Below are positions 892-15,132 of a stretch of DNA of 15,132 nucleotides, one piece after another (within the stretch, counting starts at the first letter, position 1; every line of letters starts with the position of its first letter). The DNA comes from a virus (Duplodnaviria; Heunggongvirae; Uroviricota; Caudoviricetes). The stretch lies in IMG/VR virus record IMGVR_UViG_2627853771_000002; one strand, given 5' to 3'. The translations under genes were made by a program, and so were the position numbers. Under the pieces are notes generated by a model. That model saw only the letters and a program-made list of their open reading frames with translations, was not told the origin of the DNA and did not search any database.

Positions 892-981
892 GGAGAGATG
901 CCGGAGCGGCTGAACGGACCGGTCTCGAAAACCGGAGTAGGGGCAACTCTACCGGGGGTTCAAATCCCCCTCTCTCCGCCA
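892..981 (+). tRNA. serU: tRNA-Ser, anticodon CGA
   Basis: GGAGAGA...TCTCTCC acceptor stem, discriminator G and terminal CCA; anticodon loop CUCGAAA gives anticodon CGA; long variable arm typical of class II tRNA-Ser; TTCAAATCC T-loop. Folded by eye. Confidence 0.9.
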
Positions 982-1028
982 CTATTCAAACACTTACAGC
1001 ATTCCCTTTCAGTGACCTGCATCCCGAT

Positions 1029-1062
1029 GAGAAAAATTGAGAAAATCCACTGAGAAAAATTC
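1029..1062 (+). repeat. Three direct copies of GAGAAAA(A)T between the tRNA and the integrase gene; candidate integrase arm-type binding sites
   Basis: gagaaaaatt at 1029-1038, gagaaaatcc at 1039-1048, gagaaaaatt at 1053-1062, lying 48-81 bp past the tRNA 3' end and just beyond the integrase stop. Confidence 0.3.
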
Positions 1063-1093
1063 TAGCGCCGAAGCATGCTCCGACGCCAAAGAA

Positions 1094-2068
1094 TCATCTC
1101 ATTTTCTTGTTCAACGTGGGGCTGATTTTAACTTTCCTGTCGTAAACAAGTACCTGTGATTCTGTCTTATGACCACTGAATTTTTGCTTATCCCTGCCAG
1201 ATCCTTCATAGTCTGAGATCCCTTTAGCCTTTAGATCATGGAAGGTGCAATCAAGTGGCCTACCAAGTTCTTCAGAAGCCGCGTTTCTCGCTTTTCTCCA
1301 TGCTTCATTAAATCCCTTGTATGAATAACGCTCACCATACATTGTCCTGATAACAGGGCCATCCTGTCCCCATTCCCTGCAAATATCCACAGCCGCACTA
1401 AGACGCTCAGTCCAGGCTTTGATCTGTTTAATACCAGTTTTACCTTGCTGTATGAAAATTCCTTTATCAAGAATCTGATTCCAGTTCATTTTAAGAACAT
1501 CAGATACCCTTGCAGCGCAAAGATACGCAATTTCCATCGCGGCTTTAACTGCAGGTGTCGCATGAGTGAAGATAGCTATGTACTCTTCATCAGTTATGTA
1601 GCGGTCGCGCTGGGGTTTAGGAAACTTATCGACACCAACACACGGATTACCTGGTACATAACCACGCTGATAACCCCAGCGGTATACACGAGACATTGAA
1701 CTATGCTCGTGATTAGCCTGAACACGGCTTCTTTTACCACGTGCATCCATGTAGCGTCGGACGTGTTCTGGTTTAATGGCCTTTGCTTCTGCATCGCCGA
1801 AAACCGCTAACAAGTATTTTTCATGTGCCAGGTAATCTTTTTGTGTCCTGGGGGCAAGGTCTGCATAGTCAGCACTATTTAAAAATTTTTTCCACAATTG
1901 TTGAAAGGTGAGTAGTTTTTTTCGACCTTCAACGACTTTCTCGTAAGCTAACCAAACCTCCGCTTTAGAAGCGTTTGCTGGGGCTAGATTCTCGGTAGTA
2001 CCTCCTGGCTTCCAGTAGTAACCGGAAGGGCGGAAAAACACACCCTTCGGCATCCACTCATTCAGCAT
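1094..2068 (-). CDS. Tyrosine-type site-specific recombinase (phage integrase)
   Basis: Minus-strand ORF of about 324 aa; C-terminal region carries an integrase-like motif (FHDLKAKGISDY). It ends 113 bp from the tRNA 3' end and reads toward it, the usual prophage arrangement. Start taken as ATG at 2068-2066 (TTG at 2071 is also possible). Confidence 0.85.
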   Translation of the reverse strand: MLNEWMPKGVFFRPSGYYWKPGGTTENLAPANASKAEVWLAYEKVVEGRKKLLTFQQLWKKFLNSADYADLAPRTQKDYLAHEKYLLAVFGDAEAKAIKPEHVRRYMDARGKRSRVQANHEHSSMSRVYRWGYQRGYVPGNPCVGVDKFPKPQRDRYITDEEYIAIFTHATPAVKAAMEIAYLCAARVSDVLKMNWNQILDKGIFIQQGKTGIKQIKAWTERLSAAVDICREWGQDGPVIRTMYGERYSYKGFNEAWRKARNAASEELGRPLDCTFHDLKAKGISDYEGSGRDKQKFSGHKTESQVLVYDRKVKISPTLNKKMR

Positions 2069-2216
2069 CAATCACATCTTGGGATACAGACGCTTGGATA
2101 ATATCTGCTTCGCTATAGTCGCCCCGCATAACCAGAAAACGAGCCTCATCGGAGCAGAGGTAATCAACTGCCCCATCAAATTTCCCCTTGCTGGTTGGTT
2201 TGGTTACGTTGCTCAT
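2058..2216 (-). CDS. Small hypothetical protein (52 aa) in the excisionase position upstream of the integrase
   Basis: ATG at 2216-2214 preceded by GGTGGA; translation MSNVTKPTSKGKFDGAVDYLCSDEARFLVMRGDYSEADIIQASVSQDVIDAE. Its start overlaps the upstream stop as ATGA and its end overlaps the integrase start. Below the 60-aa cutoff of the ORF track. No recognisable Xis motif. Confidence 0.4.
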   Translation of the reverse strand: MSNVTKPTSKGKFDGAVDYLCSDEARFLVMRGDYSEADIIQASVSQDVIDAE

Positions 2217-2347
2217 GCTGTCCACCATTCAATAAACATGCAGATACCAACGGTTACTACGGCAATCAGCACCCAGCAGATCACATCTAACAGGGCGGCG
2301 AGCCGACGCAGGGTGTATTTGCTGTAATTCTCAGGTTCAAAATTCAT
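2213..2347 (-). CDS. Small single-pass membrane protein (44 aa)
   Basis: ATG at 2347-2345 preceded by GGAGG; translation MNFEPENYSKYTLRRLAALLDVICWVLIAVVTVGICMFIEWWTA with a hydrophobic C-terminal half. ATGA overlap with the ParB-like stop and with the next ORF's start. Confidence 0.4.
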   Translation of the reverse strand: MNFEPENYSKYTLRRLAALLDVICWVLIAVVTVGICMFIEWWTA

Positions 2348-3129
2348 TGCGCCTCCCCAAGCACCCAGCGCAGAGCCTCGGCATATTCGCCACTGGCATC
2401 TTCGAGTGCTTTTGTAATTTCTTTGCGGGTTTTCAGGCGCGGCTTTGCATCACCGAGGATCTGACGCTGACGCCGAGCTTTTTCATGGCCCGTGGTGCCG
2501 GCGGTCGCTGTCTCGATCTGCTTGACCTTCTCTCGTTGCTCTTCGGGTTTAAGCGATGCCAACTGACGCGCCTGGGTAACAGTGACCGTTCCGGACTCCA
2601 CTGCATCGCGAACAGCTTGGGTGGCATCCAGCAGTGACAGAGTTGCGCGTACGGTCTGGACACTCACGCCAAACATCAGCGCTAAATCATCCTCATCGTG
2701 CCCGCGCTCCAGCGCATCAGCCATTTTCTTTGCTCGGCCTAGCGGCGTATCTGCCTGGCGGATTTCGTTAGCACTTACCATCGCCTGCGCCATGCGAATG
2801 GCAGAGCCACGTTTAGGGACTCCCGGAACCAGTAACGGTTCTTTGCCCAATTTTGACAGACGCTTATTGGCTTCCAGTGTATGGCGCACACGCTGGCGAC
2901 CATCAACCACACAAGACAGCCCTGTTTCCGGGTCTTTCCAGACGATAATCGGCTCAAGAACGCCCTGGTCCATGATGTTCAGCACCATTGCCTCGCTGAT
3001 AGGCAGGTGGATACGCTCATCGTAAAGCGGGTGCGTTTTGTCGGTAACCAGGTGCAGTTTTTCAGGTTCAAACGCTAAAACGTTCGTTTTGCCACTCGCG
3101 CCATATACCAGCTTTGAGTCTTTAGCCAT
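2344..3129 (-). CDS. ParB-like nuclease-domain (ParB/Srx fold) protein
   Basis: 261-aa ORF with a ParB N-terminal-domain-like core (EPIIVWKDPETGLSCVVDGRQRVRH) and an HTH-like segment (DDLALMFGVSVQTVRATL). Start ATG at 3129 shares its A with the upstream gene's TGA (TGATG). Confidence 0.7.
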   Translation of the reverse strand: MAKDSKLVYGASGKTNVLAFEPEKLHLVTDKTHPLYDERIHLPISEAMVLNIMDQGVLEPIIVWKDPETGLSCVVDGRQRVRHTLEANKRLSKLGKEPLLVPGVPKRGSAIRMAQAMVSANEIRQADTPLGRAKKMADALERGHDEDDLALMFGVSVQTVRATLSLLDATQAVRDAVESGTVTVTQARQLASLKPEEQREKVKQIETATAGTTGHEKARRQRQILGDAKPRLKTRKEITKALEDASGEYAEALRWVLGEAQ

Positions 3130-3428
3130 CAGAGAGCCTCCACGTTACGGAAGCTGGTGGGGCAAATTGCCTTCAAATCGCGCATAGCCTCTAGAACATG
3201 CATATTTGTGCGATTCTTGGTGTGTCGCTCGGTCAGGCGATCACACTCTTTCGCCCATGATTTGACCTCTGCAAGAAGGGCGTCACGTTCGGTGCGCGTC
3301 TGGCGCAGAGCTACATTCGAAACATCGAGGACGGTAGCCAGTTCCTTGATGATTGCTGCCTGTTCTGGTGGCATAGTTTTGGCTATTTCGTACGCCTGTT
3401 TAATCAGTTGTTTTGCTGTCTTAGCCAT
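3129..3428 (-). CDS. Hypothetical protein (99 aa), first gene of the leftward operon
   Basis: ATG at 3428-3426 preceded by GGAGAA; translation MAKTAKQLIKQAYEIAKTMPPEQAAIIKELATVLDVS.... The ORF track extends to 3479 only through a TTG. No family recognised. Confidence 0.55.
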   Translation of the reverse strand: MAKTAKQLIKQAYEIAKTMPPEQAAIIKELATVLDVSNVALRQTRTERDALLAEVKSWAKECDRLTERHTKNRTNMHVLEAMRDLKAICPTSFRNVEAL

Positions 3429-3721
3429 CTTTTGTTCTCCATCTGACGCTCTGCAACGCGTAAATTTAGGGTGCAGCAACCCAACCCATGAGAATGGGTG
3501 AATAGCTGGTTAAAATTTCTTGCTGATGGGGGACCGCCACTGCAATGGCGGTACGTTAGTTCTCCACACAACACAGAAGAGCACCTGCGGCCGCAAATCC
3601 GCTCGGGCGGATTGTGTTAGGGCACGTCACTCGGTGGTGCTCTGATGTCTTTTGTAAAAGGGCGAACCAGAAACAATGGGGAAACTGGTGCCGCCAAGAT
3701 GACATAGTCCATCAGACTCAC

Positions 3722-3772
3722 TTGATGTTAGGTTATGCCTAATGTCATGTCAATAGGCTTAGCCTAATGTTG
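3722..3772. promoter_or_regulatory. OL-like operator pair with an overlapping leftward promoter
   Basis: Two palindromes: ttaggt-tat-gcctaa (3728-3742) and ataggc-tta-gcctaat (3753-3768). On the minus strand a -35 TTGACA (complement of 3748-3753), a 17-bp spacer and a -10 TAACAT (complement of 3725-3730) overlap them. Confidence 0.5.
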
Positions 3773-3781
3773 GTCGGCGGT

Positions 3782-3807
3782 CAAAAAAAATCCCGCATAA
3801 GCGGGAT
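3782..3807 (-). terminator. Rho-independent terminator ending the repressor operon (hairpin plus T-run on the minus strand)
   Basis: Stem ATCCCGC/GCGGGAT (3790-3807) with loop ATAA; an A8 run at 3782-3789 on the plus strand is a T8 run after the hairpin on the minus strand. Lies between the native stop of the nuclease-like gene (3838) and the operators. Confidence 0.5.
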
Positions 3808-3837
3808 TTGTGTGAAATAAAGCTAGTGTTTTTATGA

Positions 3838-3882
3838 TTATGGACGACGCTTTCTGAAATTCTCATCATTCTGTACATATTG
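3838..3882 (-). other. Orphaned native 3' end (14 codons plus stop) of the IS1-interrupted nuclease-like gene
   Basis: Joining the reading frame of CDS 4660-5769 across the target duplication continues ...L-QYVQNDENFRKRRP-stop, with TAA at 3840-3838. Confidence 0.45.
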
Positions 3883-3891
3883 TAAAGAATC
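3883..3891. repeat. IS1 target-site duplication, left copy (TAAAGAATC)
   Basis: The 9 bp immediately left of the IS1 end are identical to 4660-4668. Confidence 0.85.
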
Positions 3892-3946
3892 GGTGATGCT
3901 GCCAACTTACTGATTTAGTGTATGATGGTGTTTTTGAGGTGCTCCA

Positions 3947-4222
3947 GTGGCTTCTGTTTCTATCAGCTGTCCCTCCTGTTCAGCTACTGACGGGGTGGTG
4001 CGTAACGGCAAAAGCACCGCCGGACATCAGCGCTATCTCTGCTCTCACTGCCGTAAAACATGGCAACTGCAGTTCACTTACACCGCTTCTCAACCCGGTA
4101 CGCACCAGAAAATCATTGATATGGCCATGAATGGCGTTGGATGCCGGGCAACTGCCCGCATTATGGGCGTTGGCCTCAACACGATTTTACGTCACTTAAA
4201 AAACTCAGGCCGCAGTCGGTAA
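3947..4222 (+). CDS. insA: IS1 InsA
   Basis: 91-aa [43 protein letters not shown]..., recalled as IS1 InsA. Confidence 0.9.
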
Positions 4223-4644
4223 CCTCGCGCATACAGCCGGGCAGTGACGTCATCGTCTGCGCGGAAATGGACGAACAGTGGGGCTATGTCGGGGCTAAAT
4301 CGCGCCAGCGCTGGCTGTTTTACGCGTATGATAGTCTCCGGAAGACGGTTGTTGCGCACGTATTCGGTGAGCGCACTATGGCGACGCTGGGGCGTCTTAT
4401 GAGCCTGCTGTCACCCTTTGACGTGGTGATATGGATGACGGATGGCTGGCCGCTGTATGAATCCCGCCTGAAGGGAAAGCTGCACGTAATCAGCAAGCGA
4501 TATACGCAGCGAATTGAGCGGCATAACCTGAATCTGAGGCAGCACCTGGCACGGCTGGGACGGAAGTCGCTGTCGTTCTCAAAATCGGTGGAGCTGCATG
4601 ACAAAGTCATCGGGCATTATCTGAACATAAAACACTATCAATAA
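4141..4644 (+). CDS. insB: IS1 InsB (expressed as an InsAB' fusion by -1 frameshifting)
   Basis: 167-aa [28 protein letters not shown]... in the -1 frame relative to insA, overlapping its 3' end. Confidence 0.85.
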
Positions 4645-5769
4645 GTTGGAGTCATTACCTAAAGAATCAAGGATTAAACCTGAAATCCTTAATACATCCT
4701 CGGGATGTTCAATGAAAATACGATTGTTATCATGTTCAAGTCCGGCTCTTTTAATTTCATTACCGGTTATTTCATTGATATCAATTGGTAACTGTATGTT
4801 TGAGCGATTCTTCTTGTCATAATAGCGAACCAGCCAGCGGTTTGTTTTTCCTTGGAAAAGAATAGAGTAATAGGACTCTGTATCTTTGGCTTGAAGTTCG
4901 TATGCAGGGCCTATAATAGAACAGATTTTTTCAAATAAAATTCTTTCATTATAGGTTGTTACTATGTTGGGGTTCTCTGCATCGACAATATCTGCGCGCT
5001 CATCAATTACATTATTTTCAGTTACATCAGCAGGGGATTCTAATTCAGGAATAGATGTTCTTGATGAAAGACCAGAAACAACCATTTCACTTACTGACCT
5101 CTCTACGGCCTGCCTCACCAATGGAGTTATTGTTTCTATAAATCTTTGATTTAATTGACGACCAATATTTGCTCGTCCTGCAACATATCTAACAAATTCA
5201 TGATCTACTTCCCGAAGGCTTGTACTCACGACTTTAACAAATGCAGAAATATAAACACTCTCTTCTGCAAGGGTTCTTAGGGCCTCTGGTTTGAATTTGT
5301 CATGGCGGAATCTAAATAATTGCTCAGCATCAGAATCTTTAATGTCATCCATCATGATTCGTAAAAATGGCGTTGAATCCATTATATTTTTTTCATTGAG
5401 ATCCGTAAAAAAGCGCCATTCAATTCCATTAGTAATTGCTGATATTGTCACCTCAGGAGTAGAATTAAAATACCTAGATAATTGAGGACAATGGTTGTCC
5501 ATTTTTTCTTTACAACCTTTGGCCTCAATAAACATAACGGGAACACCTTGGCAGAATAGAGCATAATCTACACGCTCACCCACTTTCACACCAGGGAAGT
5601 CCGCACCATATTCAGCTTTGACTTTTTGCGGATCATATGCGTTAAAGCCTAGGATGTCCAAAAAAGGAAGTATCAAAGCCTGCTTGGTTGTCTCTTCCGT
5701 TGTGCAGTGTTCTCTAACATTTTTAACATGTTCAATGTGATTTTTAAGACGTACTTTGAAGTTTTCCAT
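4579..5769 (-). CDS. Repressor-linked protein with an HsdR-N-like PD-(D/E)xK nuclease N-terminal domain and an uncharacterised C-terminal domain; 3' end replaced by IS1 sequence
   Basis: ATG at 5769 (MENFKVRL...) after GGAGGA. The first 130 aa or so follow the pattern I associate with the type I restriction HsdR N-terminal nuclease fold (D...VDYALF...[10 protein letters not shown]...QLSRY...TNG). Codons 4660-5769 are native; 4579-4659 are read from the IS1 right end. Lies downstream of, and on the same strand as, the repressor gene, inside the operator-bounded immunity region. Confidence 0.6.
4660..4668. repeat. IS1 target-site duplication, right copy (TAAAGAATC)
   Basis: Identical to 3883-3891. 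Confidence 0.85.
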
Positions 5770-5939
5770 GCATCCTCCATGCAAAGTGAAAACCTGCTGT
5801 TAAATCAAAGCAAGTCACAATCCCGGATAGGCTTCATACAAGCCAATCCCCCACAGGGATTGAGTTATGCAAGCGAATCAATCTCAGAGCTTTTAACATG
5901 TATGGAGCTTAGAGATATTGTCCGTTAGACCATATAAGC

Positions 5940-6416
5940 TTAAGCTCTGGCTTTCGTTTGTTTTTTTCCATCTTCCTCCTGCTCTGCCCATCTCCTTATC
6001 TTCATCTCTAATGAGTCTAAATATGCTTTAGCATCGCTATCTACCCAGCCAGGTATACGCTGTCCTTGCTCTAAGAGGACAAAATCAATGATAGCCTTTT
6101 TTTCTCTCGAAGCCTTATTATAGAGCTCGTCAATAGAACCATTTTTAACTATGGGATCTGTTGCGGGCTCACATGTATCAGTTAGCGGGTATCCCTTTAG
6201 TCCCCAGTGCTCGGGGCCCACAACATCAGAAAAGTAGTTCCAAAGCTCTGGTAGCTTCTCTTTCGATATGGAGCCTTTATTGATCCAGTCATGGATTGAT
6301 GGGGGTTTTATTTTGAAATGACGTGCGATTTCCGCCTTACTCTTGGCAGAACCTATTGAAAGCTTCTTGTCTATGGCCTGCTCGATCGCTCGGCCCAATT
6401 CTTTACCACTAAGCAT
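5940..6416 (-). CDS. CI/RacR-like helix-turn-helix repressor with no S24 peptidase domain
   Basis: 158-aa ORF with an N-terminal HTH-like segment (LSGKELGRAIEQAIDKKLSIGSAKSKAEIARHFKIKPPSIHDW); no Ala-Gly/Ser-Lys autocleavage features seen. Divergent from a Cro/YdaS-like gene across an operator-containing region. Confidence 0.7.
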   Translation of the reverse strand: MLSGKELGRAIEQAIDKKLSIGSAKSKAEIARHFKIKPPSIHDWINKGSISKEKLPELWNYFSDVVGPEHWGLKGYPLTDTCEPATDPIVKNGSIDELYNKASREKKAIIDFVLLEQGQRIPGWVDSDAKAYLDSLEMKIRRWAEQEEDGKKQTKARA

Positions 6417-6443
6417 TGCCTAATAATCCTCATAACCTATAGC

Positions 6444-6486
6444 TTAGGCAATTCCTATTGATTGTTTATTAGGCTTAGCCTAATAT
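6444..6486. promoter_or_regulatory. OR-like operator region with a rightward promoter
   Basis: Perfect 8+3+8 palindrome TATTAGGC-TTA-GCCTAATA at 6467-6485 and a degenerate copy at about 6444-6459. -35 TTGATT (6458-6463), 17-bp spacer, -10 TAATAT (6481-6486); the palindrome sits in the spacer. Confidence 0.55.
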
Positions 6487-6517
6487 CTGCTTGTGTGGAA
6501 ATCATAGGAATCCGTTT

Positions 6518-6781
6518 ATGAGAAGTAGCCTTGAAGCAATCAGTGAAGCCTGCCGCATTGTTGGGGGACAAGCCGCTTTGTCAAGGAATCTAGGCATCTC
6601 ATCACCAACAGTGAATCAATGGACAACGGGCATTAGGCAAATACCTGCGGAACGATGTCCTGCGATTGAGAAAGCTACTGGTGGTGCTGTCACCTGCGAA
6701 GAGCTTCGTCCTGACATTGACTGGGCCTATTTAAGAGGTGCAGCAATGCGAAAGCTTAATGTCACTGCATCAAATTTGTAA
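6518..6781 (+). CDS. YdaS/Cro-like HTH regulator
   Basis: 87 aa from the ATG at 6518 (AGGAA seven nt upstream). Motifs GGQAALSRNLGISSPTVNQW...IPAERCPAIEKATGGAVTCEELRPD match my recollection of the YdaS/Cro-type family. The ORF track starts at a TTG at 6491. Confidence 0.7.
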   Translation: MRSSLEAISEACRIVGGQAALSRNLGISSPTVNQWTTGIRQIPAERCPAIEKATGGAVTCEELRPDIDWAYLRGAAMRKLNVTASNL

Positions 6782-6809
6782 CTACCACCCGAGTTTGAAA
6801 GGAGTAGGT

Positions 6810-7262
6810 ATGAACCTCAAAGAAGTCGTGAAATCTATGTGCAAAGCATATCCAGGTGGGCGCGAAGCAATGGCTGGCGCACTGGGAATGACGGTGACGC
6901 AGTTTAACAACAACCTTTACGAGAAAAACGGCTGTCGTTTCTTCGAAGTCAGCGAACTGGAAGCGATGGAGGACATCTCGAATACATCTCACCTGGCTGA
7001 ATATTTTGCCCGCCGTCGTGGTGCTCTGCTGGTGGATGTTCCGCACCTGGAAGAACTGGACCGCGTGGACTTGTTTAGCCGGGCAATGCGTACCTCTGCC
7101 GCCAGGGGGCAGGTTGATCAGATTATCGAACAGGCGCTTGAAGATGGCGTTATTGAAAGGCACGAGGCCGAAGAAATCATGGTGCATCACCGCCGTCACC
7201 TGGCAGCTCGTGAAGAAGAGATTGCCGCAATCATCACGCTTTTTTCACGCAAAAAGAAGTGA
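6810..7262 (+). CDS. CII-like / YdaT-like regulatory protein
   Basis: 150 aa from the ATG at 6810 (AAAGGAG five nt upstream), directly after the YdaS-like gene as in Rac-type prophages. Family assignment is from position and general resemblance only. Confidence 0.45.
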   Translation: MNLKEVVKSMCKAYPGGREAMAGALGMTVTQFNNNLYEKNGCRFFEVSELEAMEDISNTSHLAEYFARRRGALLVDVPHLEELDRVDLFSRAMRTSAARGQVDQIIEQALEDGVIERHEAEEIMVHHRRHLAAREEEIAAIITLFSRKKK

Positions 7263-7289
7263 CGCCAGCGAGTTGCAGCTCCTGGCGTC

Positions 7290-8129
7290 GTGGCGTGTCG
7301 TTATCAGTGGAGATTACTAACGCATGAACAGTTTATCAACACAATACCGCAGGTCGCAACTTGTAGCGCGGCCAGTTCCTGGTGGAGCAGGGCCGGTGCA
7401 GTTCGTGTAGAGCCATTCGTTGGTGGTGGGTCGGTATTCCTGAACAGCGAAAAGCACGCAGATTACCTGCTGGCGGACGTTAACCCGGACCTGATTAATC
7501 TGTATCAGATGTTAGCGGTCGTGCCGGATGAAGTGGAATTGAAGGCCCGCTGGATGTTCGAGCACATGCGGTCACCAGAGCGCTATGAGCTGATCCGTTC
7601 CGAGTTCAACTCTCAGACGCTGGATGCTACTGAACGCGCAGCTGCATTCCTGTATCTCAACCGGCATTGCTTCAATGGTCTGATGCGCTACAACCAGGCG
7701 AACAAGTTCAATGTGGGCTGGGGAGGCTACAAGGCTCCGTATTACCCGATGGATGAGATGAAAGCCTTCGCGGCTATGGCGCATAACTGCGTATTCATGA
7801 CGGCTGATTACCGCCGGACAATCAGCCTGGCCGGGAAAGGGGATGTGGTTTACTGCGATCCGCCTTACGAACCGATGCCGGGAACAACCGGATTCACCGC
7901 CTACGCCGCTGGTGGTTTTAACTGGGAGAACCAGGTAGACCTGGCGAAGCAATGCGTATCAGCCTTTCACCGTGGGGCTCGGGTAGTGATTTCTAACTCA
8001 TCTGCACCGAAGGTTCTCGACCTGTACCGGGAGCATGGTTTTAACCTGCAATTCATCAACGCGCGCCGTTCGATCTCCTGCAAAAGCAGTACGCGGGAAG
8101 TCGCAAAAGACGTTGTAGCGATCCTTTAA
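7290..8129 (+). CDS. DNA adenine methyltransferase (Dam family, N6-adenine)
   Basis: Motif I EPFVGGGSVFLN and motif IV CDPPYEP; overall resemblance to E. coli Dam (FLYLNRHCFNGLMRYN, ISNS). The only in-frame start after the upstream stop is the GTG at 7290; the nearest ATG (7324) is out of frame, so the start is uncertain. Confidence 0.75.
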   Translation: MACRYQWRLLTHEQFINTIPQVATCSAASSWWSRAGAVRVEPFVGGGSVFLNSEKHADYLLADVNPDLINLYQMLAVVPDEVELKARWMFEHMRSPERYELIRSEFNSQTLDATERAAAFLYLNRHCFNGLMRYNQANKFNVGWGGYKAPYYPMDEMKAFAAMAHNCVFMTADYRRTISLAGKGDVVYCDPPYEPMPGTTGFTAYAAGGFNWENQVDLAKQCVSAFHRGARVVISNSSAPKVLDLYREHGFNLQFINARRSISCKSSTREVAKDVVAIL

Positions 8130-8138
8130 GGGGGCTAA

Positions 8139-8981
8139 ATGAAACTGACTTTACCATTTCCACCGAGCGTAAATAGTTACTGGCGCGCCCCGAGCAAGGG
8201 ACCGCTGAAAGGCAGGCATCTGGTAAGCGAGACAGGGCGCAAGTTCCAGCAGGCAGCGAGAGCGGCGATTATTGAGCAACTGCGGGCCGTTCCCCGGCCA
8301 TCCTCAGATCTGGCCGAGGTTCACATAAACGTTGTTGAGGGCGCGGGGCTTGAGCTTGATCCTGATGATGATTCACAGGTTCTTAAAGCGATTGGTGGCG
8401 GTCGCCTGCTTAATATTGTCACCTTTACTAAGTCAGGGACTTACACTCCAACTAAAGGGACGAAAAGAGTGCGGGTGAAAGTTTGGGGAGCGGGGGGAGG
8501 TGGCCAGAATGCTCCAGTTAGTGTGGGCGCATCTGGAGGTTGTGCTGGTGGATTTTCGGAAGGGTTATTTAATATTTCTGATAACGAAACTATATCTGTG
8601 ACGATAGGTACTGGTGGCAGTGCTGTTGCTGCTGGTGTCTCGTCTAAAGGCGGGAATGGTGGTGATACAAGGTTCGGGAGTTTAATCTCAGCTACTGGAG
8701 GGAGTGGTGGCGGGGCTACAGTTCCTGCTGGAGGTATCGGAAGTGGCGGGAACATTTTAAATATTACTGGCGAAATATCTCAAGGTGGTCTGTATTATGG
8801 TTCTGATGCTTTTATTGGCGGGGCTGGAGGATCTGCATTTTCATCAACGGGTGGCAATGGCCACTTCGGTAGTTCTGGCGATGATGGCGGTTTCCCCGGC
8901 TCAGGTGGTGCCGGGGGGAATGGTAACTATTCATCAGGAAAAGGAGCGAATGGTTTAGTTTACCTTGAAGAGTTTTCCTGA
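8139..8981 (+). CDS. RusA-like N-terminal region fused in frame to a glycine-rich, fibre-like C-terminal region
   Basis: N-terminus MKLTLPFPPSVNSYWR... resembles the RusA resolvase N-terminus (ITLPWPPSNNRYYR), and ...GGGRLLNIVTFT resembles the RusA C-terminus. From about aa 110 the protein is a GGxGG-rich tract of about 170 aa. ATG at 8139 follows AAGGGGG. Confidence 0.5.
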   Translation: MKLTLPFPPSVNSYWRAPSKGPLKGRHLVSETGRKFQQAARAAIIEQLRAVPRPSSDLAEVHINVVEGAGLELDPDDDSQVLKAIGGGRLLNIVTFTKSGTYTPTKGTKRVRVKVWGAGGGGQNAPVSVGASGGCAGGFSEGLFNISDNETISVTIGTGGSAVAAGVSSKGGNGGDTRFGSLISATGGSGGGATVPAGGIGSGGNILNITGEISQGGLYYGSDAFIGGAGGSAFSSTGGNGHFGSSGDDGGFPGSGGAGGNGNYSSGKGANGLVYLEEFS

Positions 8982-10051
8982 TTATTTTTGCTTTGAGCGT
9001 CCGCCCTTATTTTTGCTCTAATTTTAATTAGTGGCTTGTCTATTAATATTACACAAACGATCCCAAGTGCAATTGATATTGGGTAGCCTAATAAAAAGAT
9101 GGATAAGCCACGATTTTCACCACCAATAGCAAGCCATGCTAGAAATCCACCAAAATATTGACAAAGAAAAATTGGATAGGCCAGGTCACCAAACCACTTG
9201 AGTATTTTCTCAAGATGTATGTTTGTCTTTATTTTTAATAATACCAGGGTTGTAAACAATGCTATTACATTATTGGTGTAGTAAAGTATTATGTTGTACT
9301 GACCTAATGGATTAATTGTATATAAATGCCAATTGGTAATAAAAATCCCGATGCAAATAAATGTTATTAAAAAAGCTTTGTGTGGAGAAAGATACATAGC
9401 TTTGAACTTTCTATGGGCAAAATAACCCAGAGAACCCATGCTAAAAGGAAGTGTTGCAGCAAGGAATGGGAAATACGCCATATCAAAAGAATGGTGTACT
9501 ACATATACGTAAGCATGATAAAGCAGTGAAAGCAGAATCGACGTAATGGCTGTAAATTTATTTCGGGCTATGAAAAGCCACAATAAAAAATAACATGTTA
9601 TCTCAACACCCACTGACCATGATGATGTGACTATTCTGAATCTATTACCATCAATAGCAAAGTGATAAATGGATGAAAAGGCACCGAATGGATTTGCTAC
9701 AGCATTATCAGAAAGGAAAGCCCAGGGGAAGATTAAGAGGTTTCCTAATAAATCTCCAGGTAAGAAATTGCCTGTCCAGTTTGAGTGGAATTCCTTTGCG
9801 GATGGAATTAATTTTATAATAAGAAAGCCCATGACGAGAAAAAATATATATGCCGGGAATAACCTCAGTATTCTATTTTTCCAAAACATAGAGAAGTTGA
9901 ACTTGTATGTTTCATGCAAAATGTATGTTATTAAAAAACCACTAATAACATAGAAGCAATTCACTGCAAAGTTGCCAAGTGCAGGTATGCGAGCCGTTAA
10001 GTGAAAAGCAATGACGCACGATGCCAAAAAAAACCTTATTAGGCCAAGCAT
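8960..10051 (-). CDS. Acyltransferase-3 family integral membrane protein (O-antigen O-acetyltransferase-like, Oac/OafA type)
   Basis: 363-aa very hydrophobic ORF with motifs typical of the family (RFFLASCVIAFH, FYVISGFLITY); strongly AT-rich relative to its flanks. Its 3' end overlaps the convergent glycine-rich ORF by about 22 bp. Confidence 0.75.
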   Translation of the reverse strand: MLGLIRFFLASCVIAFHLTARIPALGNFAVNCFYVISGFLITYILHETYKFNFSMFWKNRILRLFPAYIFFLVMGFLIIKLIPSAKEFHSNWTGNFLPGDLLGNLLIFPWAFLSDNAVANPFGAFSSIYHFAIDGNRFRIVTSSWSVGVEITCYFLLWLFIARNKFTAITSILLSLLYHAYVYVVHHSFDMAYFPFLAATLPFSMGSLGYFAHRKFKAMYLSPHKAFLITFICIGIFITNWHLYTINPLGQYNIILYYTNNVIALFTTLVLLKIKTNIHLEKILKWFGDLAYPIFLCQYFGGFLAWLAIGGENRGLSIFLLGYPISIALGIVCVILIDKPLIKIRAKIRADAQSKNNQENSSR

Positions 10052-10314
10052 TATTTTATCTCCGCGCCAATATCGCGCATTTTATTTATTACATTGTTAA
10101 GTTGCTCATCAGACAGAACAAGCTGAGCTGCAATATAAAACAGTATGTGTCTTGACATTACCCTGGGGCTCTCTCCGCCAGTGTATTTCCGCCATTGGCT
10201 ATCGCTGGCTACACCTGCGAGCCCTGCCATTTGGTTTCCGGAGTAATTTAGTGCGGATTTCAGTCTGGCTAAATCTTCCTGCGTTGGAGGGGTGTATTTA
10301 TTTATTAAAATCAT
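10051..10314 (-). CDS. Small XRE-type HTH protein co-transcribed with the acyltransferase
   Basis: 87 aa from the ATG at 10314 (track ORF starts at a GTG at 10338). HTH-like segment LARLKSALNYSGNQMAGLAGVASDSQWRKYTGGESPR. Its stop overlaps the acyltransferase start (TAATG). Confidence 0.5.
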   Translation of the reverse strand: MILINKYTPPTQEDLARLKSALNYSGNQMAGLAGVASDSQWRKYTGGESPRVMSRHILFYIAAQLVLSDEQLNNVINKMRDIGAEIK

Positions 10315-10415
10315 TCTCTTATTTAACCGTTTAAACACGTAAGGCGATGTTAGCCCTGAAGGGGCGGGGCGTCAATCTTAATTGCTTCATTGAAAAGATG
10401 AAGACAGGAACAGGT

Positions 10416-12410
10416 ATGGACAAAAGATATAATACCGGCAATCCAAGACCTTCAAATAGCATGAAGGATCTGAATGATAACGCCCTGGCGTACGATGATT
10501 TCCTGAACAGCGAAAGCGATACTTTTATAGATCGTTTTGGTAACGCCCAGGATACGATAATTGGGGCTACTAAAAAAATGGCAGCTGCTACCGACGCTGT
10601 TATTGATGAAGCCCGCCAAAACCTGATCCCTCTCAGCCGGCAGTACATGACGCTGGCGGCGGCGCAGGCGGATATTGCGAATATTCCGGCAGGTTCAACA
10701 ACCTATGTCCGCAGTCAGGACGGAAGCTCTCTGGCCGATGAGTATATCAACCTCGCTGGAACGCTGCAGCCAACCGGACGGCGGATGGTTCGTGACGACT
10801 ACGCATACCAGGTATCGCCAGACAGCGTGACCCTGGCAGCATATGATCCGGAGACTTCCCGCGTGGCTCCATTTTTAAATACAAGCGGCAGATTAATTCA
10901 AATCGGTCCTGACGGAAAATATTACGAACTTTTAACCCAACAAGAATCCGAACTCTATGCGCTGGGCCGGGAGGGTTCTATACCGCAGTTTATTGGCGGT
11001 GAAAAAGTGTGGCGGATGACGGTTGATTCAACCACAAACCAGATCGTTGAAGCTTATACGGTTGGTGGGAAGCACTGGATTTACTCAGACGGTGGCCTGG
11101 TAGCTGTTAATAACGGAAATGGCGGTGGTGGTGGCGACGATGATGCCAACCAGCTCCCTGAGTATGGACTTCATTTGTCAGGGTCTACTGTGTACCCCTA
11201 CTCAGAGACAGTGCCTGTATGTTTTATCTTTGTGACTGCTGGGCAATCCAACGCTCGAGGATATTGTCCTGACGCCGATCAAACCATTGTCGCAGCAACG
11301 CCGATATATCCTGATAACGCTTTCATGCTCAGCGGCGGGGTTAGGCGTACAGGGACACGCAGCACTACTCTGGTGCCACTGGTTGAGGCAGTAAGTGGGA
11401 CAGATAAAGAAACGGCCGCAAGCGGCCTCGCGAACACCTTCATTCGCGATATGGCTGCAGCTACCGGAATCATGCCGCGCACGCTATCAATCGTATGTGC
11501 GCAGTCTGGTCAGGCTTACGAGTACCAGAAACGGGGTAACCAGGTATATCAGTATCTGCTCGATTCAATCGAAGACTGCGTAACGGCCTGTAAAGCACGC
11601 GGCTGGCTGCCGATTGTTCTCTGCGTTGACTGGATGCAGGGAGAGTCCGACGAGGACTGGTCAGGATTACGAGAAGGAATGTATGAATCACGGATGAGGC
11701 AGTACCAGAGACAAATCACCAGCGACATCATCGCAAGAACGGGTCAAAACGAACCGCCGATTATCGCCATTACCCAGCTGGGGTATGTCAATGACGGGCA
11801 TGGTGCATTTACAGGCCAGTACGCGCGACTGGCGTCGACGCGATTGCACGGAAAAGAGCAATTCAGGCTGGTCAATAGTTTGTACCAGTACGATTTTATT
11901 TCAGACGGTCTGCACTTGACGTGTGCGGGCCAGAACCGGCGCGGAGCAGCTGTGGCGAGAGCGCTTCTCCAGGAGTGGTTTACGAGCGGCTGGTCAGGGA
12001 TGGTTCCGACCAGTTTCGTGTGGAACTCACCCACGCAGATACAAATCAATGTCCCAGCGTATACGAACCTGGTGCTGGACACGACTACGATCAACACCTC
12101 CGGTCTGGCCAATTACGGCTTTAGCTACACGGATGAGACTGGTGCTCCACCTGCTATATCGAGCATCGCGATCAGCTCGGACGGCAAGGGCGTGCTGATT
12201 AACCTGGCGACCGCCCCCTCTGGACGTTTTGGGCGCGTTTCCTATGCGACAGCAGAAAACCCACTTCAGAGCGGCGCATCTGTAAAACCTTCCGGGCGGA
12301 CTCTTGGTGCAAGAGGGTGTGTTCGATCTTCCGCTGGAATCATATGGGTGTATGACACATCCGTGACTCTTTACGACTGGCTCCCCGCTTTTCGTATTAA
12401 CGTTTTCTGA
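10416..12410 (+). CDS. Tail-fibre/tailspike-like protein with an internal SGNH/SASA-type carbohydrate esterase domain
   Basis: Esterase block motifs in order: GQSN (VTAGQSNARGY, nt about 11241-11252), QGESD (DWMQGESDED, nt about 11631-11651) and DxxH (SDGLHLT, nt about 11904-11918). A Gly/Asp linker (NGNGGGGGDDD) precedes the domain. Start taken as the ATG at 10416 (AGGAACAGG upstream); the maximal ORF begins at 10347. Confidence 0.55.
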   Translation: MDKRYNTGNPRPSNSMKDLNDNALAYDDFLNSESDTFIDRFGNAQDTIIGATKKMAAATDAVIDEARQNLIPLSRQYMTLAAAQADIANIPAGSTTYVRSQDGSSLADEYINLAGTLQPTGRRMVRDDYAYQVSPDSVTLAAYDPETSRVAPFLNTSGRLIQIGPDGKYYELLTQQESELYALGREGSIPQFIGGEKVWRMTVDSTTNQIVEAYTVGGKHWIYSDGGLVAVNNGNGGGGGDDDANQLPEYGLHLSGSTVYPYSETVPVCFIFVTAGQSNARGYCPDADQTIVAATPIYPDNAFMLSGGVRRTGTRSTTLVPLVEAVSGTDKETAASGLANTFIRDMAAATGIMPRTLSIVCAQSGQAYEYQKRGNQVYQYLLDSIEDCVTACKARGWLPIVLCVDWMQGESDEDWSGLREGMYESRMRQYQRQITSDIIARTGQNEPPIIAITQLGYVNDGHGAFTGQYARLASTRLHGKEQFRLVNSLYQYDFISDGLHLTCAGQNRRGAAVARALLQEWFTSGWSGMVPTSFVWNSPTQIQINVPAYTNLVLDTTTINTSGLANYGFSYTDETGAPPAISSIAISSDGKGVLINLATAPSGRFGRVSYATAENPLQSGASVKPSGRTLGARGCVRSSAGIIWVYDTSVTLYDWLPAFRINVF

Positions 12411-12419
12411 GGATAAAAA

Positions 12420-13220
12420 ATGAGACTGATTTACACACTAACTGGACTGAATAACCCCTTACTCCCTGTGTACTCACAAACAGCGGCAGAGAAAGCGATC
12501 TCAGAACTATCCCCATCAGTATGGACACCAGTGAAGACAGAGTTTCTAAAAATGGGGTCTGGTGCAAAAGTAGTAGCTATCTCTAACCGATTAGATGGCG
12601 GACTTTTCAAGTCACTGGAGACCCTCGAGCCATCCACAAAGCTGAATGGTTCTGTTTTGCAGGGGCTTAATTTCTCCGGTGCATCCGGCATGGCTGGTGA
12701 TACGGCGGTGGTTATGGACGCAAACATCAATACTTTTGCATTCATCTATCAGCTGCCAGGTGGGGCGCTTCCGGCTACGCCACAGGACAGAGCGGTTATC
12801 GCAACCCAGGAAAGCACACCTCATGGCGTCGGCATTCGTACAACGTCAGCAGGTTCATTCCCGATTTTTCTGAATGGAGGGATCGAGGCCGATCTGGCAT
12901 TTACTCCTAACAATATAGGGCAATCTTTATTCTGCGCTGTAGTTATGTGCTCTAACAAGGCTGCTGGATCCTATGCAATTGCATACCAGCGGTCAGATCA
13001 GTCTGCAGTGACCAGCCGACAAGTGACGGGCTATACAATCCCAGCGTATAGCCCGTCTCAAAAAATGAGTATTGGCGGAGCAGGCAATGGTTCAGTGTCT
13101 CCGTTAACATCCGTTTTGTCAGAATGTTTGGTTTTCCCCGGCAAATATGCATATGGGACCAGCACACTGGATGTCATCCTGGCATATCTGATGGAGAGGA
13201 TTGGAAAAATCACGGCCTAG
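12420..13220 (+). CDS. Hypothetical 266-aa protein co-transcribed with the fibre/esterase gene (possible fibre partner or assembly protein)
   Basis: ATG at 12420 lies 6 nt after GAGGA and 9 bp after the upstream stop. No recognisable motif. Confidence 0.5.
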   Translation: MRLIYTLTGLNNPLLPVYSQTAAEKAISELSPSVWTPVKTEFLKMGSGAKVVAISNRLDGGLFKSLETLEPSTKLNGSVLQGLNFSGASGMAGDTAVVMDANINTFAFIYQLPGGALPATPQDRAVIATQESTPHGVGIRTTSAGSFPIFLNGGIEADLAFTPNNIGQSLFCAVVMCSNKAAGSYAIAYQRSDQSAVTSRQVTGYTIPAYSPSQKMSIGGAGNGSVSPLTSVLSECLVFPGKYAYGTSTLDVILAYLMERIGKITA

Positions 13221-13254
13221 AATTTGCCGAATGCATCCGAGTCGGTCCGCAGCG

Positions 13255-13413
13255 ATGGAGCAGGAGAGAGTCGGCGGCCGCCGCCGGATAATGACTGAAG
13301 AAGTGGTGGAGCGGTGCCGCAGAATGCTGGAGAACGGCGCTACCCGGCAGCAGGTGGCTGATGTGACAGGCGTGGACGTGAAAACAATCTACAAGTACCT
13401 CCCGGCGACTTGA
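13255..13413 (+). pseudogene. 3' fragment of a serine DNA invertase gene (Hin/Gin/Pin-type C-terminal HTH only)
   Basis: ...GGRRRIMTEEVVERCRRMLENGATRQQVADVTGVDVKTIYKYLPAT-stop resembles the C-terminal HTH of Hin/Gin/Pin invertases; no catalytic N-terminal domain precedes it, because the upstream sequence is the end of the 266-aa gene. Confidence 0.55.
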
Positions 13414-13490
13414 AGGCAAAGATTTCACTACTTTTCCTGATATGTTACGTTTGGCTTAATCAATTCATTCAGCTTTGAAAACAGTTTGGT

Positions 13491-13913
13491 TTGTTCGTGA
13501 ACGGTAAGAAAACAATAAGTTTTGAGCAATTTTTAACTATTAACAGCAATCTTGTTTCCATCTCAGATACATGGGCTGACTTGTGGGCGTTAATTTTTCA
13601 CACGGGTTTAAGCGCTGGAAGGCTGCTGAGTATTCGATATGATGATATTGATGGTGACTTGATACTGATACGAAAACAGGGTCACCTGAAGGAGCTACGT
13701 GTTAAATCAACCCCTCCAGTGGAGGGGATCATTGCTCGTAGAAGAGAACGCTATCCAGAAGATGTTTTTTTATTTCAGAGCCATTCTAACCGTGTGAAGT
13801 ACCAATGCCGGCCGGTCACTATAATTGCTTTCAACGCCGCTTTACGTCGCGCCGCTAGATCATTACCAGACGTTAACGTAAGCAGTAGTAGCGCGAGAAA
13901 CATACCGGACTAA
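13491..13913 (+). pseudogene. FimB/FimE-like small tyrosine recombinase remnant, C-terminally truncated and degenerate
   Basis: Box-I-like region LWALIFHTGLSAGRLLSIRYDDIDGDLILIRKQG parallels FimB/FimE, but the catalytic Arg position is Ser and the His/Arg/Tyr C-terminal motifs are absent. No ATG start (TTG/GTG only). Confidence 0.4.
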
Positions 13914-13931
13914 CCGCCTGTCCAGTCGCGT

Positions 13932-13985
13932 GTGGCCGATGTGACAGGCGTGGGGGTGAAGACTATTTACAAATATTTGCCAGTA
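13932..13985 (+). repeat. Second diverged copy of the invertase 3'-end segment
   Basis: gtggccgatgtgacaggcgtgggggtgaagactatttacaaatatttgccagta encodes VADVTGVGVKTIYKYLPV; most differences from copy 1 are synonymous. In frame with ORF 13491-13913 but separated from it by a TAA. Confidence 0.5.
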
Positions 13986-14003
13986 CAATACGGCGATAAA
14001 AAC

Positions 14004-14029
14004 CCCCTTGAGCAGGCACACTCAAGGGG
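14004..14029 (-). terminator. Hairpin with a T-run on the minus strand; possible terminator for leftward transcription
   Basis: CCCCTTGAG (14004-14012), 8-nt loop, CTCAAGGGG (14021-14029); the preceding plus-strand AAAAA is a T-run after the hairpin on the minus strand. Confidence 0.3.
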
Positions 14030-14140
14030 AAAATACTACATAACATCATTGCTGTGTGCGTCTTTGCGCTCGTCTATCTTCCAAGAATATGCCTAAAGCT
14101 TCCAGATATTTCTGGTCTGAGCTGTTACATCATGGAGTAG

Positions 14141-14198
14141 GTGCCGATGTGATAGGTTAAGAGCGAAGATGATCTGTAAGTACCTTCCGACGTCGAGG
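14141..14198 (+). repeat. Third, more degenerate copy of the invertase 3'-end segment
   Basis: gtgccgatgtgataggttaagagcgaagatgatctgtaagtaccttccgacgtcgagg aligns with copy 1 (gtggctgatgtgacaggc...aaaacaatctacaagtacctcccggcgact). Confidence 0.35.
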
Positions 14199-14533
14199 GG
14201 CAATGACCATGAATTTGGGTCTATACCATCCCAATTCATATATTCTTTGTAAGTCTATGAAATATAGAGCAAAGTATTCTGTTCGAAATGAACCATATGG
14301 AATAGCCAAAGGCTAAAATGCCCAGAGTAAAAACAACAATCAGCAAGTCCGTCTGTGACATCTTATATCCATTTTGCAGTAGCAGGTTTTGAGAAAAGAT
14401 AGTTCATAGTTGGCACATAGACAACATAATCACTAAGTGAAACCAATATCAGAGGCTAAAAGGTGACTGGTTTCCTCCTCAGTGTTCCTGATTGATAGCT
14501 GGAACCTGTATTGATCAGATCTCTTAATGAATC

Positions 14534-14553
14534 TACTGTATATAAAAACAGTA
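14534..14553 (+). promoter_or_regulatory. LexA (SOS) box overlapping a promoter
   Basis: TACTGTATATAAAAACAGTA matches the E. coli consensus TACTG(TA)5CAGTA at 18 of 20 positions (CTGT-N8-ACAG intact). A possible -35 TTGATC lies at 14510-14515. Confidence 0.75.
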
Positions 14554-14571
14554 TTTTCGGGAGGTGAAGTT

Positions 14572-14730
14572 ATGCCGCGAAACTCAGATATCGAAATAGC
14601 CTGGCGTCAGGCAATTGTCATTGAGCCTAATGGCCGTCGCACCGTGACAACGTCCGGTTTTATCCGGGAACTCGCAAAAGTTAACTGGATATGGTCACCG
14701 CGCCAGGCTAACCAGTGGATAGAGCACTGA
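14572..14730 (+). CDS. Small hypothetical protein (52 aa) immediately downstream of the LexA box
   Basis: ATG at 14572 lies 7 nt after GGGAGG; translation MPRNSDIEIAWRQAIVIEPNGRRTVTTSGFIRELAKVNWIWSPRQANQWIEH; stop 9 bp before the UmuD-like start. No family recognised. Confidence 0.45.
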   Translation: MPRNSDIEIAWRQAIVIEPNGRRTVTTSGFIRELAKVNWIWSPRQANQWIEH

Positions 14731-14739
14731 CATTCCGGG

Positions 14740-15132
14740 ATGTCTCAACGCAGGAAGGCGATGAGCTCACGTTCCAGTTATACAACCCAAACGGAGGGCT
14801 ATAACGTGGGATTTCCGTCGCCAGCTGCTGACTATGTTGAACGGCGTCTGACCGTTGATTCACTCTGCGGTACCGGCCCCAATACTCGGATAGTACAAAC
14901 AGAAACCGGCTATGCCGTAGTGGATTGCTTCGTAAAACCAAAGCAAGGAGATACCGTTTTAATTCAATACGGCGGCGGCACTGATTTTGCAAAAATTATG
15001 GGCCGGGCATTTATTACACGAGACGGTGAAGCGTTGGAAGGTGAGGCCCTGGATGATGTTACAGTTGTCGGGGTAGTGACATTCGTTATCAATCGGATAG
15101 GGAAGGATGATGATGATTATCCAGTAATATGA
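14740..15132 (+). CDS. UmuD-like (peptidase S24-like) protein, apparently lacking the catalytic serine and the Cys/Ala-Gly cleavage site
   Basis: GFPSPAADYVERR matches the conserved UmuD/MucA/RumA segment and the C-terminus (DDVTVVGVVTFVI) matches UmuD (LDVFGVVIHVV). Where those proteins have GDSM/GSSM, this one has GYAV, and VG replaces CG/AG before FPSPAADY. An alternative start is the ATG at 14761 (AGGAAGG upstream). The stop TGA at 15130-15132 overlaps an ATG at 15129. Confidence 0.7.
   Translation: MSQRRKAMSSRSSYTTQTEGYNVGFPSPAADYVERRLTVDSLCGTGPNTRIVQTETGYAVVDCFVKPKQGDTVLIQYGGGTDFAKIMGRAFITRDGEALEGEALDDVTVVGVVTFVINRIGKDDDDYPVI

Follow-up and report, generated by a model that had tools for sequence, protein, structure and literature searches.

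A predicted SOS-controlled cassette with a divergent HumD-type UmuD' analogue at the end of a degraded Escherichia coli prophage

Introduction

The stretch of DNA analysed here, 15,132 nucleotides (nt) of a virus of the Caudoviricetes (IMG/VR record IMGVR_UViG_2627853771_000002; hereafter the window), ends in a LexA box, a small open reading frame (ORF) and a UmuD-like gene. What kind of UmuD-like protein is encoded behind this LexA box, and with which partner would it act? The original prediction, made from the letters alone, saw a UmuD homologue unable to cleave itself, which would stay full-length and would probably be followed by a umuC-like gene. Our analysis leads to a different answer. 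The locus is, judged by its sequence, a divergent member of the known phage HumD group, and its UmuD-like protein is predicted to be pre-cleaved, that is made in the UmuD' form, rather than uncleavable. We describe the evidence for this assignment, the decayed small gene beside it and the prophage island in which both lie, and weigh what such a cassette might do during the SOS response.

Results

Gene start and processed form

The original prediction rightly recognised a UmuD-like ORF with the FPSPAADY segment that continues to the window end, but it placed the start at ATG 14740, which gives 130 amino acids (aa). The true start is most probably GTG 14806, with a product of 108 aa. The 22 codons in between appear to be noncoding, the 3' end of the upstream small gene read out of frame, because three observations agree on this. 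Between Klebsiella phage Kp4882-3 and E. coli phage vB_EcoS-733R5 (733R5), the 66 nt upstream of the GTG carry eight synonymous and one nonsynonymous codon changes when read in the small-gene frame. In 733R5 itself, one additional base shuts the HumD frame 5' of the GTG, which leaves it without an ATG and with a stop 15 codons up. Furthermore, the profile phrog_3469 ("UmuD-like protein") starts to match at residue 23 of the long ORF (profile positions 1-104 against residues 23-126, E 7e-49).

Comparison with structures points the same way. In a phmmer search against the PDB, residues 2-53 of the protein aligned to residues 25-74 of UmuD, and to UmuD' from residue 1, and the 22-codon extension showed no similarity to the N-terminal 24 residues of UmuD. 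The arrangement is also general, as an ATG or GTG stands directly before GFPSP, 0-2 nt past the small-gene stop, in every homologue examined. The full pattern of small-gene stop, 0-2 nt, ATG/GTG and GGx-TTY-CCx was found in phiES15, Midgardsormr38, mEp390, LAU1, Kp4882-3 and 733R5. The GGAGGG Shine-Dalgarno sequence that would serve this start (GGAGGGCT) is unchanged in three aligned loci.

If the product begins at GTG 14806, the VG that had been taken for an altered CG/AG cleavage site is simply the initiator codon followed by Gly25. The protein would then start at the Gly after the UmuD cleavage site, like P1 HumD, without the N-terminal 24-residue segment and without the Ala/Cys-Gly site that follows such a segment in S24 peptidases. 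The claim that it stays in the full-length form is thereby overturned, as there is no segment to remove.

Family membership, lost active site and tail

UmuD' analogues that start at residue 25 are known from P1 (HumD), P7, D6, N15 (gp26), phiKO2, HK639, HK140 and other phages. A profile built from 71 members of the window family aligned with P1 HumD, N15 gp26, HK140 gp28 and UmuD' over 108 of 108 columns (hhalign 98.8 %, E 1e-16), with a single 11-residue deletion over the Ser loop. The window protein has the features of the HumD group: a start codon directly before GFPSPAxDY, homology over the full length including the acidic-Pro tail at the C-terminus, and a LexA box immediately upstream of a temperate phage gene without umuC. 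The "HumD family" equivalog model NF051876 reached 33.7 bits against a cut-off of 120 bits and matched only residues 23-49 of the long ORF (1-27 of the 108-aa protein), and therefore we regard the protein as a divergent HumD relative and not as an equivalog. A second model, NF007621, gave 27.3 bits (cut-off 110). Pfam returned no match at E<=1, PF00717 included, and PADLOC likewise nothing above threshold. The globular domain is 21 % identical to UmuD'. Within the family constraint is strong, with 76 % mean column identity and invariant motifs, among them the arm M-G-F-P-S-P-A-x-D-Y, which is invariant in all 71 sequences.

The S24 beta-barrel fold is kept, and both catalytic residues of this fold, the nucleophile Ser60 and the general base Lys97, are missing. 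MAFFT and hhalign both delete 11-12 residues equivalent to UmuD S57-D68, Ser60 included, and set GYAVVD opposite the following strand, DLLIVD. In agreement with the lost Ser loop, the AlphaFold 2 (AF2) model has a tight hairpin between E27-31 and E35-40. The original prediction had paired GYAV with the GDSM/GSSM of UmuD-type proteins, as phmmer also did. This pairing is probably a misalignment, but its essential point stands, since a catalytic serine is missing under either alignment: with GYAV in register, the nucleophile column holds Ala in 58, Val in 10 and Thr in 3 of the 71 sequences, and never Ser. At the position of Lys97, 68 of the 71 sequences have Ala. The residue after it is Lys in 63 and Thr, Arg or Asn in the other eight, and short of a solved structure the register may be off by one residue. 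Among HumD-type proteins the site decays in steps, from Ser and Lys in P1, through Thr and Lys in N15 and HK140, to neither in the window subfamily. Such a pattern is predicted if the processed form is encoded directly, because selection on the protease site is then relaxed.

The C-terminal tails follow the form DD[CY]P[VA][IL], which is absent from UmuD: FDDCPVI in P1, FDDCPVL in N15, DDDDYPVI in the window and NDDCPAI in mEp390. In the AF2 model the tail (residues 99-108) is disordered, with a predicted local distance difference test score (pLDDT) below 50. More broadly, tails of these proteins consist of an acidic run and then x-Pro-hydrophobic at the C-terminus, as in DDDDYPVI (window 15109-15129), DDDIPIM (...SDDDIPIM of phage Kp4865-1, positions 13082-13102 of locus L021), DDDDLPV, EEDDAIPI and the P1 tail. 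They look like the C-terminal interaction tip of SSB, DDDIPF (PMC5872125), and may be short linear motifs that mimic it.

Promoter and LexA box

The near-consensus LexA box reported by the original prediction was confirmed. A 20-mer LexA pattern with up to three mismatches had one single match in the 15-kb window, where 0.03 are expected by chance, and a looser consensus scan again returned this as the sole LexA site. The putative -10 overlaps the first 6 nt of the box, as annotated for promoter p95 of phage 186, and the putative -35 (TATTGATC) is unchanged across the three aligned loci of the window, Kp4882-3 and 733R5. As in the SOS regulon, the predicted LexA operator overlaps the promoter. 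The association is conserved, as a CTGT-N8-ACAG box stands just upstream of the cassette or of a humD-type gene in ten of ten fetched loci, P1 humD and N15 gp26 among them. Such a box also precedes tum in phage 186. From its sequence, the end cassette is thus a module predicted to be under SOS control, to whose box LexA would bind. A scan for promoters and terminators gave no intrinsic terminator immediately 3' of the UmuD-like gene, and Rfam and tRNA scans found no RNA feature within the cassette region.

Two observations from related phages also concern LexA. Kp4882-3 and Kp4872-1 carry a second LexA-like box, CACTGTTTATATGTACAGTA, within the coding sequence of their own repressor with helix-turn-helix (HTH) and S24 domains (positions 6070-6089 of locus L020 and 7696-7715 of locus L022). 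In mEp390, a 106-aa ORF (positions 10267-10587 of locus L019; 31266-31586 of the record) matches E. coli LexA with E 5e-18 and has about half its length. If it keeps the DNA-binding part without the cleavable part, its product could hold LexA-box promoters, including that of the cassette, in the repressed state.

A decayed small gene

Between the LexA box and the UmuD-like gene, the original prediction had placed a 52-aa ORF with a strong Shine-Dalgarno sequence, GGAGG, which is indeed present, and had held it to be foreign to canonical umuDC operons, a view that our data support. This ORF represents only the first part of a 79-aa gene, whose window copy has been inactivated by a 7-bp deletion. 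The deletion is revealed by alignment with the intact copies of Kp4882-3 and 733R5. Profile phrog_3893 has 79 positions; the 52-aa product matches the first 52 of them, and a frame-corrected reconstruction of 77 aa matches along the entire profile (E 5e-31). The annotation by the Prokaryotic Genome Annotation Pipeline (PGAP) labels the full span "DNA polymerase V, frameshifted". A winged-helix fold is predicted for the 79-aa protein, and the cut at residue 52 takes off the wing.

A profile search retrieved 553 members of the intact family, and an exhaustive search gave 178 cluster representatives (50 % identity). Nearly all members are about 79 aa long, stand alone and have no Pfam domain; the named matches come from Enterobacterales, many under the NCBI name "DNA polymerase V". 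Pfam, NCBIfam and PADLOC gave nothing above threshold; among the profile libraries, only PHROGs recognised the small protein, and the same holds for the UmuD-like protein. A relationship to Tum was tried and rejected (hhalign probability 0.1), and so was one to the N-terminal domain of LexA (0.09), and with it the idea that a LexA-like protein had been divided at the point of cleavage. Apparent fusions of the small protein with a HumD-like protein, 139-187 aa long, had garbled linkers in the four cases inspected and are frameshift products, as in the window.

Truncated or frameshifted copies of the 79-aa gene are frequent in databases (for example the proteins P0349, P0350, P0282 and P0391), many as 40-60-aa fragments, and several frameshifted copies read through into the HumD-like frame to give the pseudo-fusions of 139-187 aa. 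This suggests recurrent inactivation in lysogens, while some of the fragments may stem from short contigs. A distant match was seen in a 1019-aa database protein (P0318), in which 11 separate stretches match positions 16-47 of the small-protein profile (E 1e-12); it may be a repeat protein built of a related helix-turn segment.

Absence of umuC and the prophage island

As originally noted, the stop codon of the UmuD-like gene overlaps an ATG at the window edge (ATGA). The umuC-like partner expected behind it is refuted by extending the sequence. In E. coli HS, whose sequence is identical here, this ATG opens 14 codons only (MKSGAHLNFILTPG, then a stop), and PGAP has nothing before the attR tRNA-Ser fragment and yodB. 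There is no adjacent Y-family polymerase gene (umuC, mucB or rumB), nor was a umuC found next to the cassette in the homologous phage loci examined.

At least 15 complete E. coli chromosomes, that of HS among them, contain the last 653 bases of the window (14480-15132) with 100 % identity, and there are strains that match over the whole window and carry it as a small island. The order is mtfA, tRNA-Ser, integrase, ParB-like gene, insertion sequence (IS) element, RacR-like repressor, Dam methylase, acyltransferase, SASA-esterase tail-spike-like gene, cassette, a tRNA-Ser 3' repeat and yodB (coordinates in Table 1). The last 62 nt of the tRNA-Ser recur about 270 nt past the window end in HS. The two tRNA-Ser copies flank a degraded prophage as its attL and attR, and within it the cassette is the last coding unit. 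The element is a lambdoid prophage of about 14 kb in tRNA-Ser (serU) of E. coli, with the cassette on the attR-proximal side. Nearly all structural genes are lost and IS elements are present.

Table 1. Features of the window discussed in the text
Feature	Position	Strand	Remarks
tRNA-Ser(CGA), attL side	892-981	+	ARAGORN, Rfam
Integrase	1094-2071	-	
RacR-like repressor	5940-6416	-	no Peptidase_S24 match
Dam methylase	7290-8129		
Gly-rich protein	8139-8981		
O-antigen-type acyltransferase	8960-10051	-	
SASA-esterase tail-spike-like protein	10347-12410		687 aa
Putative -35 TTGATC	14511-14516	+	17 bp upstream of TACTGT; putative function
LexA box TACTGTATATAAAAACAGTA	14534-14553		perfect CTGT-N8-ACAG; 18/20 consensus positions; first hexamer TACTGT doubles as putative -10
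Shine-Dalgarno GGAGG	14560-14564	+	7 nt before ATG 14572
Truncated 52-aa ORF, front of the small gene	14572-14730	+	stop TGA created at the deletion junction
Pseudogene of the 79-aa winged-helix family, full span	14572-14804	+	7-bp deletion at 14728/14729; original stop TAA 14802-14804
N-terminal extension of the 130-aa ORF (14740-15132)	14740-14805	+	22 codons, predicted noncoding in the HumD frame
Shine-Dalgarno GGAGGG	14793-14798	+	7 nt before GTG 14806
Predicted HumD-type UmuD' analogue, 108 aa, M-GFPSPAADYVE...DDDDYPVI	14806-15132	+	Ser60 loop deleted; Lys97 replaced by Ala

Window positions 892-15132 correspond almost exactly to one degraded island between mtfA and yodB. In HS, this right end is joined to a far larger prophage, which has genes for head and baseplate. 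Ahead of the cassette lies a 140-aa ORF (13491-13913) with a match to phrog_19751 (E 5e-46) and a weak one to C-terminal integrase sequence (phrog_1). HS has this ORF in the corresponding place, as phage 733R5 probably does. It may be a piece of an integrase or belong to a small family of independent proteins.

Distribution and accompanying repressors

A tblastn search with the 108-aa protein retrieved 62 phage records (Klebsiella, Enterobacter, Escherichia, Cronobacter, Erwinia and Pantoea), and one with the small protein 45. The 108-aa subfamily is common in prophages of Klebsiella, Enterobacter and some E. coli, and the cassette occurs in about 1 % of complete E. coli genomes, where intact as well as frameshifted forms are seen. 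In the siphophage loci examined, the pair lies between tail-fibre genes and att or int, with the small gene, where present, first. HK140 is a bridging case, with dinI on the minus strand, a LexA box, the 79-aa gene, a 129-aa HumD-type gene and attP in this order. In P1 and N15, the small gene is missing and HumD is encoded on its own. In Kp4865-1, a Klebsiella Uetakevirus (epsilon15-like podophage), a HumD-like gene (positions 12731-13105 of locus L021) stands alone behind a LexA box, just upstream of apparent terminase genes and with no 79-aa partner. Hence the HumD-like gene passes from one phage type to another without the small gene having to follow.

We also looked at the repressors of the cassette phages. 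A repressor with HTH and Peptidase_S24 domains is present in five of the six sampled phages with an identified repressor (HK140, mEp390, Kp4882-3, Kp4872-1 and Kp4856-1), and therefore the cassette is not generally needed for induction. The sixth, phiES15, which is recorded as UV-induced, has a 133-aa HTH-only repressor outside the S24 family, and the sole LexA box in its 40 kb precedes the cassette.

Discussion

We consider it somewhat better than an even bet (probability about 0.55) that the UmuD-like protein is a ready-made UmuD' surrogate for the host UmuC upon SOS induction. According to this reading, one LexA-repressed promoter would drive a two-gene accessory cassette of temperate Enterobacterales phages. 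DNA damage would lead to self-cleavage of LexA and to transcription of the cassette. The HumD-like protein, presumably a dimer, would then engage host UmuC through its N-terminal arm and give Pol V-type translesion activity without the delay of RecA*-dependent conversion of UmuD to UmuD', as reported for P1 HumD. The database record of P1 states that HumD "functionally complements E. coli UmuD'", an activity known for P1 HumD alone within the HumD group. AlphaFold models of Pol V predict distinct contacts for the two UmuD' subunits. The highly conserved N-terminal arm of one reaches in between the palm and the little finger of UmuC, close to its active site (PMC11791011; PMC12926913), and the other receives the UmuC C-terminus around S36/T71/K73 (S60/T95/K97 in UmuD numbering; PMC11791011). 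Bacillus accessory subunits are related by the arm only (PMC12926913).

Several points weigh against a UmuD' surrogate. The pocket equivalent to S36/T71/K73 is missing here, so that the protein may bind UmuC differently or not at all. The Pol V paradigm does not provide for the conserved winged-helix partner, and the repressor and LexA box of phiES15 would rather fit a role in induction. Beyond its first 27-52 residues the protein lies below Pfam and NCBIfam thresholds, and the confidence of the structure model is only moderate. The window copy of the cassette is itself partly decayed, within a degraded island. Finally, our literature searches found nothing specific on the 108-aa subfamily.

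Some of these features could also suit a look-alike that alters the SOS response of the host. As a decoy or modulator, the protein would bind UmuC, form heterodimers with UmuD or UmuD', or attach to the RecA* filament, but would not sustain synthesis; it would damp or retime SOS mutagenesis or signalling of the host, to the benefit of the phage, as with the DinI homologues encoded alongside. The arm is kept while the Ser60/Lys97 pocket, the predicted holder of the UmuC C-terminus, is gone, and the globular domain is far from UmuD' in sequence. A dinI-like gene diverges from the same LexA box in HK140, and from a shared upstream region in mEp390, HK225 and Eeyore. We nevertheless find this explanation rather unlikely, as the evidence for it is indirect, P1 HumD, the closest characterised relative, is annotated as complementing UmuD', and the proteins of N15 and HK140, with Thr for Ser yet Lys kept, speak for a graded loss of the active site and not for a clean change of function. 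Doubtful, too, is a two-protein SOS effector of an undescribed kind, in which a protease-dead, born-cleaved UmuD' analogue and its winged-helix partner would redirect host Pol V or the replisome during induction, or link SOS to induction in phages with non-cleavable repressors such as phiES15. It would build on the UmuC-inserting arm that is kept, the UmuC-tail docking pocket that is lost and the SSB-tip-like tail. A plain induction switch, with the winged-helix protein, the HumD-like protein or both acting as a LexA-controlled antirepressor of the prophage repressor, like Tum (186), GfoA/GftA (Gifsy) or AntC (N15), strikes us as quite improbable. Known SOS antirepressor operons do pair a small antirepressor with a homologue of an SOS protein, DinI (PMC3121763), the promoter resembles 186 p95, phiES15 has its HTH-only repressor and its only LexA box before the cassette, and the RacR-like repressor of the window island has no Peptidase_S24 match. 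Yet the cassette is not restricted to phages with non-cleavable repressors, as the five with HTH and Peptidase_S24 repressors demonstrate, and no sequence link to a known antirepressor was found. The small protein is unlike Tum, its tblastn search gave no Salmonella phage and thus no Gifsy homologue, and P1 and N15 do without it.

The remaining explanations concern the state of the locus. That the cassette of this island is a decaying, functionless relic would agree with the frameshifted small gene, the loss of structural genes, the IS elements and the many damaged small-gene copies among database representatives. We hold it to be very unlikely, given an intact 108-aa ORF with intact Shine-Dalgarno sequence, promoter and LexA box, a segment that is identical in at least 15 complete E. 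coli genomes, and the strong constraint across the wider family. Close to no credence is left for a full-length, non-cleavable UmuD that would stay in the UmuD2 "checkpoint" form beside a umuC-like gene. The missing serine nucleophile and the ATG-started 130-aa ORF, open in the window, had spoken for it; the extension is out of frame, unconserved, closed in 733R5 and unlike the start of UmuD, and the lack of umuC downstream, in the window locus as in homologous loci, refutes this part of it.

A UmuD' surrogate as favoured here would have consequences beyond this island. Born-cleaved UmuD' analogues would let a mobile element start error-prone synthesis once LexA falls, skipping the cleavage that RecA* times. 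The 108-aa subfamily could serve as a natural separation-of-function variant, with the invariant arm kept and the Ser60/Lys97 pocket gone, and would thereby put the AlphaFold view of Pol V, with the arm inside UmuC and the UmuC C-terminus held at the pocket, directly to the test. As far as our literature searches reach, the full loss of the protease site, the SSB-tip-like tail and the conserved winged-helix partner, a pseudogene here, are undescribed, and the last of these points to an uncharacterised partner of phage HumD-type proteins. Current annotations mislead in three ways: the 79-aa protein is labelled "DNA polymerase V" and the 108-aa protein "S24/S26 family peptidase", and the gene models run to 123 aa (RefSeq) or 130 aa.

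Comparison with known systems

Two further likenesses are the C-terminal domain of phage 186 CI, a non-catalytic S24 fold, and the YqjX/YolD variants of B. subtilis, arm-only Pol Y accessory subunits. Both belong to other families with other partners and are alike in principle only. Similar in layout are the operons tum-orf97 of 186, dinI-gfoA-irsA of Gifsy and antC of N15, which, like the window cassette, are prophage accessory operons with a LexA box over the -10 and encode a small protein together with a homologue of one of the SOS proteins of the host. In contrast to these antirepressor operons, the small protein of the window is unlike Tum, its SOS homologue is UmuD'-like and not DinI-like, and the cassette coexists with a RecA-cleavable CI in most sampled phages.

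Compared to E. coli UmuD/UmuD', the S24 peptidase and accessory subunit of Pol V, the window protein lacks the 24-residue N-terminal segment, the cleavage site, Ser60 and Lys97, as well as a umuC operon partner and a PF00717 match, and it has an additional acidic-Pro tail at the C-terminus. The best counterparts are P1 HumD, N15 gp26 and HK140 gp28. As in the window, their start codon stands directly before GFPSPAxDYVE, which would yield the UmuD' form at once, a LexA box lies immediately upstream, umuC is not adjacent, and the protein ends in an acidic-Pro tail (FDDCPVI compared to DDDDYPVI). The window protein differs in its length of 108 aa against 129 aa, with the 11 residues of the Ser loop gone and the C-terminal half further shortened, and in an Ala at the position of HumD Lys73. 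It also differs from the proteins of P1 and N15 in the co-oriented 79-aa gene that precedes it, an arrangement which it shares with HK140.

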